The notes below the pieces were generated by a model. It was not told the origin of the DNA and did not search any database. It was given only the letters and a program-made list of their open reading frames with translations. This document shows positions 15,490 to 54,794 of a stretch of DNA of 64,000 bases, in pieces (within the stretch, counting starts at the first letter, position 1; each line of letters begins with the position of its first letter). The stretch lies in assembly GCF_003334255.1 (NCBI RefSeq), contig NZ_QOWU01000013.1; one strand, given 5' to 3'. Source of the DNA: Escherichia coli (lineage in GTDB: Bacteria > Pseudomonadota > Gammaproteobacteria > Enterobacterales > Enterobacteriaceae). Made by a program: the position numbers and the translations under genes.

Positions 15490-16176
15490 TTATTTGGTGA
15501 TATTTTTTTCAATATCATGCAGCAAACGGTGCAACATTGCCGTGTCTCGTTGCTCTAAAAGCCCCAGGCGTTGTTGTAACCAGTCGACCAGTTTTATGTC
15601 ATCTGCCACTGCCAGAGTCGTCAGCAATGTCATGGCTCGTTCGCGTAAAGCTTGCAGTTGATGTTGGTCTGCCGTTGCATCACTTTTCGCCGGTTGTTGT
15701 ATTAATGTTGCTAATTGATAGCAATAGACCATCACCGCCTGCCCCAGATTGAGCGAAGGATAATCCGCCACCATCGGCACACCAGTAAGAACGTCAGCCA
15801 ACGCTAACTCTTCGTTAGTCAACCCGGAATCTTCGCGACCAAACACCAGCGCGGCATGGCTCATCCATGAAGATTTTTCCTCTAACAGCGGCACCAGTTC
15901 AACTGGCGTGGCGTAGTAATGATATTTCGCCCGACTGCGCGCAGTGGTGGCGACAGTGAAATCGACATCGTGTAACGATTCAGCCAATGTCGGGAAAACT
16001 TTAATATTATCAATAATATCACCAGATCCATGTGCGACCCAGCGGGTGGCTGGCTCCAGGTGTGCCTGACTATCGACAATCCGCAGATCGCTAAACCCCA
16101 TCGTTTTCATTGCCCGCGCCGCTGCCCCAATATTTTCTGCTCTGGCGGGTGCGACCAGAATAATCGTTATACGCAT
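15490..16176 (-). CDS. lasT: SpoU/TrmH-family RNA methyltransferase LasT (YjtD), 228 aa
   Basis: MRITIILVAPARAENIGAAARAMKTMGF N-terminus; ATG at 16174-16176. The ORF-track start is 7 codons upstream. Confidence 0.9.
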   Translation of the reverse strand: MRITIILVAPARAENIGAAARAMKTMGFSDLRIVDSQAHLEPATRWVAHGSGDIIDNIKVFPTLAESLHDVDFTVATTARSRAKYHYYATPVELVPLLEEKSSWMSHAALVFGREDSGLTNEELALADVLTGVPMVADYPSLNLGQAVMVYCYQLATLIQQPAKSDATADQHQLQALRERAMTLLTTLAVADDIKLVDWLQQRLGLLEQRDTAMLHRLLHDIEKNITK

Positions 16177-16575
16177 ATTGCCACTCTTCTTGATCAAATA
16201 ACCGCGAACCGGGTGATCACTGTCAACTTATTACGCGGTGCGAATTTACAAATTCTTAACGTAAGTCGCAGAAAAAGCCCTTTACTTAGCTTAAAAAAGG
16301 CTAAACTATTTCCTGACTGTACTAACGGTTGAGTTGTTAAAAAATGCTACATATCCTTCTGTTTACTTAGGATAATTTTATAAAAAATAAATCTCGACAA
16401 TTGGATTCACCACGTTTATTAGTTGTATGATGCAACTAGTTGGATTATTAAAATAATGTGACGAAAGCTAGCATTTAGATACGATGATTTCATCAAACTG
16501 TTAACGTGCTACAATTGAACTTGATATATGTCAACGAAGCGTAGTTTTATTGGGTGTCCGGCCCCTCTTAGCCTG

Positions 16576-16716
16576 TTATGTTGCTGTTAAAATGGTTAGG
16601 ATGACAGCCGTTTTTGACACTGTCGGGTCCTGAGGGAAAGTACCCACGACCAAGCTAATGATGTTGTTGACGTTGATGGAAAGTGCATCAAGAACGCAAT
16701 TACGTACTTTAGTCAT
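16576..16716 (-). CDS. yjjY: Small ORF YjjY, 46 aa (MTKVRNCVLDALSINVNNIISLVVGTFPQDPTVSKTAVILTILTAT)
   Basis: Translated by hand; corresponds to the annotated K-12 small ORF embedded antisense in the arcA upstream region. Evidence that it encodes a protein is weak. Confidence 0.4.
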   Translation of the reverse strand: MTKVRNCVLDALSINVNNIISLVVGTFPQDPTVSKTAVILTILTAT

Positions 16717-16811
16717 GTTACGCCGATCATGTTAATTTGCAGCATGCATCAGGCAGGTCAGGGACTTTTGTACTTCCTGTTTCGATTTAGTTGGCAATTT
16801 AGGTAGCAAAC

Positions 16812-42440: not shown

Positions 42441-42862
42441 TGCCGGATACGGCCTACGGTTCGGCACAGACTTGTAGGCCTGATAAGACGCGTCAAGCGT
42501 CGCATCAGGCATTGTGCGCCAACTGCCGGATGCGGCGCGAACGCCTTATCCGGCCTACGGTTCGGCACAAACCTGTAGGCATGATAAGACGCGACAAGCG
42601 TCGCATCAGGCATTATGCGCCGACTGCCGGATGCGGCGTGAACGCCTTATCCGGCCTACGGTTCGGCACAGACTTGTAGGCATGATAAGACGCGACAAGC
42701 GTCGCATCAGGCATTGTGCGCCAACTGCCGGATGCGGCGTGAACGCCTTATCCGGCCTACGGTTCGGCACAAACCTGTAGGCATGATAAGACGCGTTAAG
42801 CGTCGCATCAGGCATTGTGCGCCAACTGCCGGATGCGGCGTGAACGCCTTATCCGGCCTACG
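42441..42862. repeat. REP/BIME cluster: about four tandem 101-bp units
   Basis: Motif CTACGGTTCGGCACA recurs at 42455, 42556, 42657 and 42758 (period 101 bp); each unit holds two inverted REP palindromes. Confidence 0.9.
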
Positions 42863-43637
42863 GCACGTTAAACAACGTATACGTGTTATTAAGCAACGCT
42901 TGCGCAATCTCATCCGCCGGTTCCCGGCGCAACTCGCAAAGCACGGCAAACACACGGGCAGCCTGCTCCGGGCGGTTAGGCTGCCCCTGAAAACCGTTGA
43001 GCGGCATATCCGGCGCGTCGGTTTCCAGCAATAACGATGCCAGCGGTAATTTTGCGATGACATCGCGGGTTTTACTGGCGCGTGGATAGGTGATAGTACC
43101 GCCTACGCCAATTTTGTAGCCCAGCTGTACAAACCGTTCGGCCTGTTGCAGGCTGCCGGAAAAACCGTGAACCACGCCAGTGCGCGGTAAATCGTGGCGT
43201 TTAAGATGCATCGCCAGTTTGTCGTGCGTGCGCCGTGAATGCAGGATCACCGGCAGATCGTAGCGTTTCGCCAGTTTCAGTTGTTCGTCGAGTAACCACT
43301 GCTGCCTCTCAAATTGCGGATCGTCGCCAAAGAGATCCAGACCGATCTCCCCCACCGCCACCACCTTCGCCGGACGCCTTTCCAGCGCCTGCTGTAGCTG
43401 CTCAAGAGACACATCGCTATGTTTTTCCAACATACCAGGATGCAAGCCCAATGCGGCATACAGCGGTTGATAATTTTCCGCTAATGCCAACACACGGGCA
43501 AAATTTTCCGCCTCTGTTGCCGGAACAATGATCTTGCCTACGCCCGCTTGTGCCGCGCGTTGCAGGCTGGCCTCTTCATCGCCACTAAACGGCGGGAAAT
43601 CAAAATGGCAGTGGGTGTCGATAAAACGGCAAATCAA
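42858..43637 (-). CDS. yjjV: TatD-family metal-dependent hydrolase YjjV, 259 aa
   Basis: MICRFIDTHCHFDFPPF (HxH metal-binding start); the last codons and TAG stop lie inside the terminal REP unit. Confidence 0.88.
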   Translation of the reverse strand: MICRFIDTHCHFDFPPFSGDEEASLQRAAQAGVGKIIVPATEAENFARVLALAENYQPLYAALGLHPGMLEKHSDVSLEQLQQALERRPAKVVAVGEIGLDLFGDDPQFERQQWLLDEQLKLAKRYDLPVILHSRRTHDKLAMHLKRHDLPRTGVVHGFSGSLQQAERFVQLGYKIGVGGTITYPRASKTRDVIAKLPLASLLLETDAPDMPLNGFQGQPNRPEQAARVFAVLCELRREPADEIAQALLNNTYTLFNVP

Positions 43638-50716: not shown

Positions 50717-50803
50717 GCGAAGGTGGCGGAATTGGTAGACGCGCTAGCTTCAGGTGTTAGTGTCCTTACGGACGTGGGGGTTCAAGTCCCCCCCCTCGCA
50801 CCA
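50717..50803 (+). tRNA. leuQ/P/V: tRNA-Leu (anticodon CAG), 87 nt, single copy
   Basis: GCGAAGGTGGCGGAATTGGTAGACGCGCTAGCTTCAGGTGTTAGTGTCCTTACGGACGTGGGGGTTCAAGTCCCCCCCCTCGCACCA: cloverleaf with long variable arm, anticodon loop TTCAGGT, encoded CCA end. Confidence 0.96.
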
Positions 50804-52044: not shown

Positions 52045-52722
52045 TTAATAGGGATGCAACACATTACTTGTTTCGCAATGCCGCATACATAACAGAATAT
52101 CTGCGGCCTCCAACAACCCTGCGTCAGAACTGACGCCCAGTTTCGACATCACATTAAATTTATGTGCACGGATCGTTTTGATATTGCGTTTAAGCTGCTC
52201 GGCAATTTGTGTCATTGAGTAGCCACGCGACATAAAGCGCAATATTTCTCTCTCCGTCGGGCTTAACGTCCGGCTTTGGTTAATGTACCACTGATTGTTC
52301 AGTCGGTCGGTCGCCTGACGTACACCATTTAATGACAAAAAGAGTTCCTGATGAAAAATCTCCAGCGTTGACGCTTTACTTAATACACCGTCCAGCGGTG
52401 ATGGCGACAATGAACCAATCAGCCGAGCTTCAATATCATCATCCGCAATAACTAAACGCCGGGTACGCGGAAACTTAATCGCCAGTTCAGTCAGGCAAGA
52501 TAATCCCTCTCTGCGCTCACTTCTCATGGCAGAAAAAGAAAAAATGACCGCCGCAAACGAGATCCGCGACATGGCATCCTGAAATGACTCCTGACTGGTA
52601 TAGGTATGGAGCTTATAAGGGTTACCCGCAAACTTTCTGAATAAACTCTCAATACCGATACTACTCATGACGCATTTTTCTATGAGTGCGACATTTCTCT
52701 TCTTAATTCGGCTGTGTTCCAT
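52045..52722 (-). CDS. bglJ: LuxR-type transcriptional activator BglJ, 225 aa
   Basis: C-terminal LuxR/FixJ HTH ([36 protein letters not shown]). Confidence 0.88.
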
Positions 52723-53405
52723 TCTGCGGCATCTCCATAAACAGAAGGCAAGTTAAGTTCTCTTGCACCCTGCGCGCTATTTATCCATGCATACATTTCA
52801 GCGTTGCTGTGAATTGCCAGTCGACGCATCGCACTGTTTTTTTGGGCGCTGATAGTTTTATTACTTTTCTTAAGCAATGAAGCTATCTGGTTGATGCCCC
52901 ATCCTTTACCTAATAGCCGCAGTACCTTGCGCTCTGAAAGAGTGAGAATGACGGAGCGATAGCTAAAATCATGAGTTTCAGTCATTGCCGGGGAGGTCAG
53001 CATGGCGCTGATACGCTCTGCGTGCGTATTGCCGGAACGTACGGTCTTGACCAGATTCTCAATGGGTTCAACATCAGACAATAACGTCGCCGTAGGGCAC
53101 ATGAGCAGTTCTACTGCCTGGGAATACCAGGAGCGTGACACCATGAAAACCCAGTGAATTTCCCGATATTGTGAGATTAAAGAATAATAATGTTCACAAA
53201 CAGAACGTGGATCTTCACTTTCACCGGCTAAATCAGCAATGACTAATCCGGAACGACGTAATTGTAATAAGGTAAGGTCCTCCGCAGAGGCGCTGGATAT
53301 TATTTCATATTCAGGGAAGTGAGTCCTCATGACCTCTTTTAACCCTGCTTGCATAACAGGTATTTTACTGATAACAATTCCATTTTTGCAGCATCCTGGC
53401 AACAT
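52680..53405 (-). CDS. yjjQ: LuxR-type regulator YjjQ, 241 aa
   Basis: C-terminal LuxR HTH ([34 protein letters not shown]); overlaps the bglJ start (yjjQ-bglJ operon). Confidence 0.85.
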
Positions 53406-54023
53406 ATTTCCTCCACATCCACTGTCTAAAAATTATGATGGTTTATTCAGGATATTCATTCCTTAAATGTTTCCAGCAAATTAATAGATTAAGCGAATAA
53501 ATTATCCTTAGCATTCACTTTCATATCAGCATACTCCTGCTGCACAACAACTCCACTGCATGTGTCAGAAGGTTAGCATCAAATGATAACCTGGTGAAAT
53601 AGCCTGGAGACATTTAAAATATCTACATTAAGTTGTTAGGAATACTTAATGAAAAACAGAAATCACATTCATTTAATTTATAATTAAATGATATCCCTTC
53701 CCGCAGAATGCAAAATCACACAACCAATATTTATTCAATGAAATCTGATGGTTTTAGCTTGTTAACATTAAAAAACGTGCCCGGTTATCTATTATCCTGA
53801 TTCGTAAAGGCCAAACAATAAATTCATTATGATGATAATATTCATGTGATAGTTTGTTTGCGGCGAGAGATAATTCGCTTTTTATCACCGAGCTTCTCCC
53901 GATAACCAGGATTAATCAGCGCAATTTTGATCTTAACCTACCGCAAAACAACCGTGCTTCATGATACAAATGGATTCTCATTATCTGAACAATACGCAGC
54001 ACGTCTATGACAAAGGGCGAGTT

Positions 54024-54794
54024 ATGCAAACTGAGCAACAGCGAGCCGTAACACGGCTTTGTATCCAGTGTGGATTATTTCTTTTGCAACATGGTGCGGA
54101 AAGCGCGTTGGTTGATGAGCTTTCCTCACGACTGGGTCGGGCACTGGGAATGGACAGCGTCGAAAGTTCTATCTCTTCGAACGCCATAGTGCTGACAACT
54201 ATTAAAGATGGGCAATGCCTGACATCGACACGTAAAAATCACGATCGCGGCATTAATATGCATGTGGTGACTGAAGTCCAGCACATTGTGATTCTTGCGG
54301 AGCATCATCTGCTGGATTACAAAGGCGTAGAGAAACGATTTAGCCAAATTCAGCCATTACGTTACCCAAGATGGCTGGTAGCCTTAATGGTTGGCCTTTC
54401 TTGCGCCTGTTTCTGTAAACTCAATAACGGTGGCTGGGATGGTGCCGTCATCACCTTCTTTGCCAGTACGACCGCGATGTATATCCGCCAGCTGCTGGCA
54501 CAACGTCATCTTCATCCACAGATCAACTTTTGCCTTACCGCTTTCGCCGCCACCACCATTTCCGGATTGCTTTTGCAACTCCCCACTTTCAGCAATACCC
54601 CCACCATTGCGATGGCCGCCAGCGTTCTGCTGCTAGTGCCGGGCTTTCCGTTGATTAATGCCGTCGCCGATATGTTTAAAGGCCACATCAATACCGGACT
54701 GGCACGCTGGGCGATCGCCAGTCTGCTGACACTGGCTACCTGCGTCGGCGTAGTGATGGCACTGACGATTTGGGGGCTACGCGGATGGGTGTGA
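54024..54794 (+). CDS. yjjP: ThrE-family inner membrane protein YjjP, 256 aa
   Basis: Start taken at [12 protein letters not shown] (ATG 54024); the ORF-track start is 21 codons upstream. Confidence 0.8.

Follow-up and report, generated by a model that had tools for sequence, protein, structure and literature searches.

The promoter regions closest in kind to the one analyzed here are those of the bgl operon and of leuO, where, as between yjjQ and yjjP, H-NS silences AT-rich upstream DNA, LeuO relieves the silencing and IS insertion brings about activation, according to three reports (PMC9678765; PMC9499468; PMC5025477). For bgl, one of these excerpts describes silencing through H-NS sites upstream and downstream that form a loop (PMC9678765). 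Between yjjQ and yjjP, unlike this arrangement of upstream and downstream sites, the silenced DNA lies between two divergent promoters. Both bgl and leuO, which are activated by LeuO or by BglJ-RcsB, belong to the same regulatory circuit as the yjjQ-bglJ operon. For that operon H-NS is the repressor and LeuO an activator; it stays OFF in the wild type, and its repression by H-NS is dominant under laboratory conditions (PMC5025477; PMC3950696; PMC4264507). For this regulation all three papers cite Stratmann, Madhusudan & Schnetz (2008, J Bacteriol 190:926), a study whose title names the divergent yjjP as H-NS- and LeuO-regulated too. The activating effect that LeuO has on the native yjjQ-bglJ operon is described as too weak to be of consequence under laboratory conditions (PMC5025477).

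We analyzed the intergenic region of this locus within a window of 64,000 nucleotides, the whole stretch of DNA available to us. The locus is that of an E. coli K-12-type chromosome, the window being 99.98% identical to strain ER1709 over its length. The yjjQ coding sequence (52680-53405, minus strand), supported by its open reading frame and the RefSeq annotation, is the first gene of the yjjQ-bglJ operon and encodes a LuxR/FixJ-type HTH regulator of 241 aa, with weak matches to the families of that type. Its 3′ end is overlapped by 43 bp by bglJ (52045-52722, minus strand, 225 aa), whose product passes the NCBIfam equivalog NF008548 with 383 bits against a cutoff of 176. Divergent from yjjQ, and taken from its RefSeq start, yjjP (54024-54794, plus strand) encodes a ThrE-family membrane protein of 256 aa and is followed on the plus strand by yjjB, dnaT and dnaC. 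The yjjPB pair is described as a succinate transporter, a finding of Fukui (2017) relayed in an excerpt of a later paper (via PMC12332998). The earlier note on this DNA had called yjjQ and bglJ a LuxR-type activator pair. They are indeed LuxR-type regulators, but the word activator is loose, because repression of flhDC is the role attributed to YjjQ (Wiebe, 2015, mentioned in PMC5493358); BglJ, for its part, activates only as a heteromer with RcsB (PMC3950696).

Three features of the neighboring DNA are recorded here as observations in their own right. Within yjjQ, frameshifts occur at a run of seven T at 52837-52844, which reads A7 on the sense strand of the gene: one base is missing from ER1709 at or adjoining the run, with the first mismatch at 52837, S1-ESP-02-A has an extra base, and the annotation marks yjjQ as frameshifted in both of these strains; in the window the gene is intact. 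Four strains that are otherwise divergent share an identical YjjQ protein (WP_000936635.1). At 50717-50803 the window carries a single tRNA-Leu(CAG) gene, as against three tandem copies in K-12 ER1709 and other strains; approximately 235 bp are absent relative to ER1709, probably as a result of recombination between the repeated tRNA genes. The gap between yjjV and yjjW (42450-42863, GC 0.60) is occupied by tandem repeats of approximately 101 bp, with copies 95-97% identical, which are probably REP/BIME elements.

Between the yjjQ ATG (53405, minus strand) and the RefSeq yjjP ATG (54024) lie 618 bp (53406-54023), a stretch that is annotated as gene-free in more than 5,400 E. coli genomes. Of 5,426 complete E. 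coli genomes, 5,425 were matched by an 831-bp query across the region, and the annotation beneath the match names yjjQ and yjjP. The interval had been put earlier at about 550 bp, which agrees with the 555 bp (53406-53960) that remain when an in-frame ATG further upstream, at 53961, is taken as the start of yjjP, giving 277 aa. The abstract of the 2008 study reportedly also gives the length of the region as 555 bp. This longer form of yjjP, extended by 63 nt (21 codons), was rejected: it is interrupted by stop codons in two Escherichia lineages, GTG replaces the ATG at 53961 in two others, and the extension is not conserved across genera, unlike the block at 54011-54026 that holds the Shine-Dalgarno sequence and ATG of the RefSeq start. 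Because the extension is broken in Escherichia lineages and unconserved beyond them, we prefer the figure of 618 bp. At this length the interval is the longest annotated gap in the window. The earlier ranking of it as the largest gene-free stretch apart from the arcA leader is fair, the gap between arcA and yjtD reaching 635 bp only if the 46-aa yjjY ORF is ignored. The statement that no ORF of at least 60 aa lies in the gap also held, the longest one wholly inside being 44 aa; an ORF of 45 aa at 53329-53466 starts within yjjQ and ends in the gap.

The gap is markedly AT-rich, as had been claimed, with a GC content of 0.345 relative to 0.520 for the window; only 0.29% of all 618-bp segments of the window are as low. 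The only other low-GC cluster in the window is found upstream of arcA, around yjjY (16157-16774), where GC reaches a minimum of 0.382; papers on evolution in the mouse gut also report mutations in the yjjY/yjtD spacer (PMC5094792; PMC4674774). Set against the other intergenic gaps of the window (0.437 ± 0.071), the GC of the yjjQ-yjjP gap is approximately 1.3 SD under their mean, and two shorter gaps are more AT-rich. What is unusual about the yjjQ-yjjP gap is its length combined with its AT-richness. The frequency of TpA in the gap is 0.09, approximately twice that of the window (0.041).

Helically phased A-tract curvature is often cited for H-NS-silenced regions, although it is not obligatory. 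The earlier note had seen phased A/T tracts in the gap, and this did not hold: neither the number of tracts nor their 10-11.5-bp periodicity was higher than in shuffled sequence. The gap contains 9 homopolymer A/T tracts of at least 4 nucleotides, compared to 10.8 ± 2.3 in dinucleotide-preserving shuffles, and its spectral power at 10-11.5 bp gave P = 0.10 for AA/TT and P = 0.54 and 0.55 for two other tract definitions. Curvature, which had been suggested as a check, was predicted by a wedge model, checked on synthetic phased and unphased A-tracts. The mean curvature of the gap was raised, though only moderately, at 28.5 degrees per 30 bp versus 23.3, which puts it among the highest 2.8% of segments, and two local peaks, at 53740-53766 and 53874-53916, exceeded the 99th percentile of the window. 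The high-affinity nucleation motif of H-NS has the consensus tCGWTWAATT. With this consensus, the gap gave 7 matches at two or fewer mismatches, compared to 4.8 ± 2.1 in composition-matched shuffles (P = 0.21). Because phasing is absent, motif matches are not significantly enriched beyond composition, and GC is low and TpA high, the sequence-level signature of H-NS in this gap is its composition, not the phasing of A-tracts.

The proposal of the earlier note that this is a silenced control region of the H-NS type is supported by the literature: later papers report H-NS repression and LeuO activation of yjjQ-bglJ, and the spacer between yjjP and yjjQ is listed as an H-NS target by genomic SELEX (PMC3946193). 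As a description of what the region controls, yjjQ-bglJ is right but incomplete; since the two units are divergent, yjjP is controlled as well. SELEX with RpoD lists the promoter hexamers ATGAAA-17-TTTAAT towards yjjP and CTGATA-17-GATAAT towards yjjQ (PMC3946193). A consensus scan of the gap returned 7 sigma-70-like sites relative to 3.7 ± 2.1 expected, one of which, the candidate sigma-70 promoter for yjjQ at 53501-53529 (minus strand), has hexamers equal to the published yjjQ entry; its –10 block is partly conserved across genera. In MarA ChIP-seq of ETEC H10407, a strong peak was reported between yjjP and yjjQ, with the site gcatcaaatgataac (PMC5684230). The window carries an identical MarA box at 53576-53590 (plus strand), and this box is invariant in the six E. 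coli alleles that we compared.

We read the 618 bp, with a probability of about 0.9, as an H-NS-silenced, LeuO-relieved regulatory region that is shared by the divergent units yjjQ-bglJ on the minus strand and yjjP-yjjB on the plus strand. In the mechanism that we propose, H-NS would coat the AT-rich spacer, mainly over a centre of 260 bp, and both promoter sets would thereby be kept off under laboratory conditions. LeuO, a LysR-type protein, would bind in the spacer and restructure the complex, partly relieving the silencing of yjjQ-bglJ, and MarA would also bind near the yjjQ side. The conserved flanks would hold the sequence-specific signals, i.e., promoters, Shine-Dalgarno sequences and transcription-factor sites. 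In the centre, constraint would act on length and base composition and leave the sequence itself free, so that it would be expected to drift fast. IS insertions could part the yjjP promoter from the silenced centre, so that yjjP expression would go up. The abstract of the 2008 study is said to describe H-NS as binding centrally in the region, at a distance from the promoters, with one LeuO site overlapping the yjjP promoter.

Diversity (π) was calculated from six alleles, i.e., the window and five E. coli alleles chosen across the range of identity, and it divides the spacer into three zones. The yjjQ-proximal zone (53406-53639, minus strand), with the 5′ UTR, the Shine-Dalgarno sequence, the candidate promoter and the marbox, is conserved (π = 0.008; 5 of 234 columns variable). 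So is the yjjP-proximal zone (53901-54023, plus strand), in which the yjjP core promoter and 5′ UTR are placed by inference (π = 0.005; 2 of 123 columns variable). Between them lies a fast-evolving centre (53640-53900), the most AT-rich part of the spacer with a GC of 0.318, where π is 0.076 and 49 of 263 columns are variable, with three further columns of indels. The contrast in variability between the centre and the flanks over the six alleles is significant (Fisher P = 6e-13). For scale, π at third-codon positions is 0.057 in yjjP and 0.017 in yjjQ. Over 5,403 genomes, the centre is at least 99% identical to that of the window in 626, 95-99% identical in 1,761 and 90-95% identical in 3,016 (56%). 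The corresponding counts for the yjjQ-proximal zone over 5,419 genomes are 4,757 (88%), 661 and 1, and those for a piece of the yjjP coding sequence of equal length are 1,362, 4,060 and 3. In comparisons with cryptic clades and other species of Escherichia (loci L011-L014), identity is 81-86% for the flanks (81-84% for the yjjQ-proximal zone) and 50-56% for the centre, and across Escherichia the centre keeps a GC of 0.30-0.34 and a length of 261-271 bp. One of these loci, that of the E. albertii type strain NBRC 107761 (L014), has a deletion of approximately 575 bp inside yjjP, equivalent to 54062-54635 of the window, with the spacer and yjjQ-bglJ retained. The pattern of conservation fits the silencing model, with signals in the flanks and a centre as expected for a reader of DNA shape and AT content.

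The length of the gap could also be explained by an unannotated gene for a small protein or small RNA. There are several ORFs of 20-45 aa in the gap, and one of 30 aa on the yjjQ strand (53613 to 53521) is open or nearly so in five Escherichia lineages. This ORF, however, lacks a Shine-Dalgarno sequence and has no counterpart outside Escherichia, and its peptide identity is 47-56% at a nucleotide identity of approximately 81%, so that its substitutions are not preferentially synonymous and it evolves like non-coding DNA; judged by its sequence, it is probably not a gene. Every ORF of the centre is broken in two to four of the five other E. coli alleles compared, while those of the flanks are intact only because the flank DNA is nearly invariant. 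A search of the gap against Rfam gave no match at E ≤ 1. We consider a hidden gene extremely improbable.

A long AT-rich spacer at this locus is not confined to E. coli. A survey with one genome for each species yielded 80 loci with YjjQ relatives across Enterobacteriaceae, and the divergent arrangement of yjjP and yjjQ-bglJ was present in 76 of the 80 loci fetched, the other four being too short upstream of yjjQ to tell. It occurs in Escherichia, Citrobacter, Salmonella, Enterobacter, Klebsiella, Kluyvera, Raoultella and other genera. Where yjjP and yjjQ are directly adjacent and divergent (53 loci), the spacer measures 387-709 bp (median 442) and has a GC of 0.32-0.44 (mean 0.368); relative to the DNA around it, the GC is lower by 0.147 on average. 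The distance from yjjP to yjjQ is approximately 2.6 kb in about 20 loci (Klebsiella, Kluyvera, Raoultella and some Citrobacter) and approximately 1.8 kb in three Pseudocitrobacter loci. In the one locus of the 2.6-kb set that was examined, from Klebsiella oxytoca (L036, 1145-3222), the DNA between the two genes encodes a 4-hydroxybenzoate-hydroxylase-like (pobA-like) monooxygenase of 394 aa and an AraC-type regulator of 289 aa, names given on visual inspection of the translated sequences. In the adjacent, 2.6-kb and 1.8-kb loci alike, GC is 0.29-0.40 over the 250 bp upstream of yjjQ. Conservation of sequence across genera is limited to a few blocks. On the yjjQ side they comprise 53401-53420, with the Shine-Dalgarno sequence and ATG, 53491-53510, with the –10 region of the candidate promoter, and 53571-53580, with part of the marbox. 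Further blocks lie at 53611-53650, at 53921-53970 and at the Shine-Dalgarno sequence and ATG of yjjP (54011-54023). The centre could not be aligned across genera.

This distribution bears on the idea that the AT-richness is a remnant of a recent horizontal acquisition of yjjQ-bglJ, as xenogeneic DNA that H-NS happens to bind. The two genes have a GC of 0.45, under the window mean of 0.52, and H-NS targets are often foreign DNA, as stated in an excerpt of one report (PMC2646131). Recent acquisition is nevertheless very improbable, given that the locus shows neither a patchy distribution nor broken synteny; since the arrangement is found across many genera of Enterobacteriaceae, any acquisition of yjjQ-bglJ would have been ancient. 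Moreover, the AT-rich spacer persists despite turnover of its sequence, which points to a composition that is maintained rather than left over from a foreign source.

Insertions of IS1, IS2 and IS5 at –111, –185 and –256 from yjjP recur during evolution in the mouse gut (PMC5094792; PMC4674774; PMC12332998), and they map to 53913, 53839 and 53768 of the window, respectively; the last two fall in the centre, which we propose as a landing zone for IS elements. In the clone with the IS1 insertion, yjjP expression was up 2-fold under aerobic conditions (PMC5094792). The IS1 site at 53913 marks the border of the yjjP-proximal zone and comes shortly before the conserved blocks at 53921-53970, on their upstream side. 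Because the IS1 of the clone with raised yjjP adjoins these blocks, we infer that the yjjP core promoter lies within approximately 110 bp of the ATG; this suggests that IS1 uncouples the promoter from the silenced centre. Among 5,426 E. coli genomes, the spacer has no contiguous match in about 25-32, and three of these were examined. In NZ_LR536430.1, the IS3-family element ISSen4 is inserted at approximately 53521, where it interrupts the candidate yjjQ promoter within its spacer. In NZ_OY754834.1, an IS1B-associated deletion takes the 5′ end of yjjQ and the intergenic DNA up to 53839, and its junction, 185 bp upstream of yjjP, is at the position of the IS2 insertion from the mouse. In NZ_CP180597.1, an IS1-associated deletion removes yjjQ, part of bglJ and the whole spacer. 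The ISSen4 or IS1 elements that lie in, or replace, the yjjP-yjjQ spacer of natural isolates occupy 1851-2971 in locus L090, 2288-2985 in L091 and 3292-3989 in L004.

These insertions, together with the comparison across genera, also help in judging whether the centre is neutral filler, AT-rich through mutation bias, with function confined to the promoter-proximal flanks. The π of the centre, which equals or exceeds the value for the third-codon positions of yjjP, and its failure to align across genera are what such filler would look like. On the other side stand the spacer length and GC, kept within the ranges given above in 53 genomes of many genera, and the 250 bp upstream of yjjQ, which stay at a GC of 0.29-0.40 even where pobA and pobR have been inserted; by comparison, the other intergenic gaps in the window average 0.437. 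In addition, the IS2 and IS5 insertions in the centre recur under selection, the rise in yjjP having been measured in the IS1 clone (53913). Neutral filler explains the divergence of the centre, but it explains neither the length and AT content kept across genera nor the selected effect of the insertions, and we regard it as unlikely. We infer that the centre of the H-NS-silenced region is a platform for the nucleation and spreading of H-NS. A stronger version of this reading, which we put forward tentatively and would ourselves bet against, is that the centre (53640-53900) is selected for length and composition only, as a sequence-free H-NS platform and an evolvable switch, with natural alleles that differ in silencing strength. 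If that were true, the switch, made evolvable by its rapid turnover, its varied alleles and its openness to IS elements, would tune succinate export through yjjPB, and YjjQ and BglJ, to the host niche.

The locus matters for what it controls, i.e., two LuxR-type regulators, of which BglJ with RcsB activates leuO, bgl and other loci and YjjQ represses flhDC, together with a succinate exporter that is repeatedly under selection in the mouse gut. The spacer also illustrates clearly how DNA flanked by two conserved promoter zones can diverge in sequence and yet hold its composition. A few natural isolates mirror experimental evolution, with one IS1 junction at the position of the mouse IS2 insertion.

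The H-NS-silenced, LeuO-activated region between yjjQ and yjjP is thus real, was correctly read except for the phasing, the activator label and the length, and is already known. The yjjQ-bglJ / yjjP region of Stratmann et al. (2008) is the same locus in the same organism, with the same claim of silencing by H-NS, antagonism by LeuO and divergent promoters, and because this was published in 2008 there is nothing new in the regulatory logic. Our analysis goes beyond that work in the patterns of conservation at population scale and across genera and in the IS elements of natural isolates, and it adds no new mechanism; the three-zone pattern and these IS elements are small additions, not a new kind of system. 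Two further regions of E. coli, uspC-flhDC and csgDEFG-csgBAC, resemble this one in being long, divergent, AT-rich spacers with many transcription-factor sites that are hot spots for IS elements (PMC11267920; PMC5493358). Together with yjjP-(yjjQ-bglJ), both have been used as variable, host-informative markers (PMC11267920; PMC5493358). They differ from it in that uspC-flhDC and csgDEFG-csgBAC integrate many well-mapped regulators, whereas the reports found for the yjjQ-yjjP region concern H-NS, LeuO and MarA.
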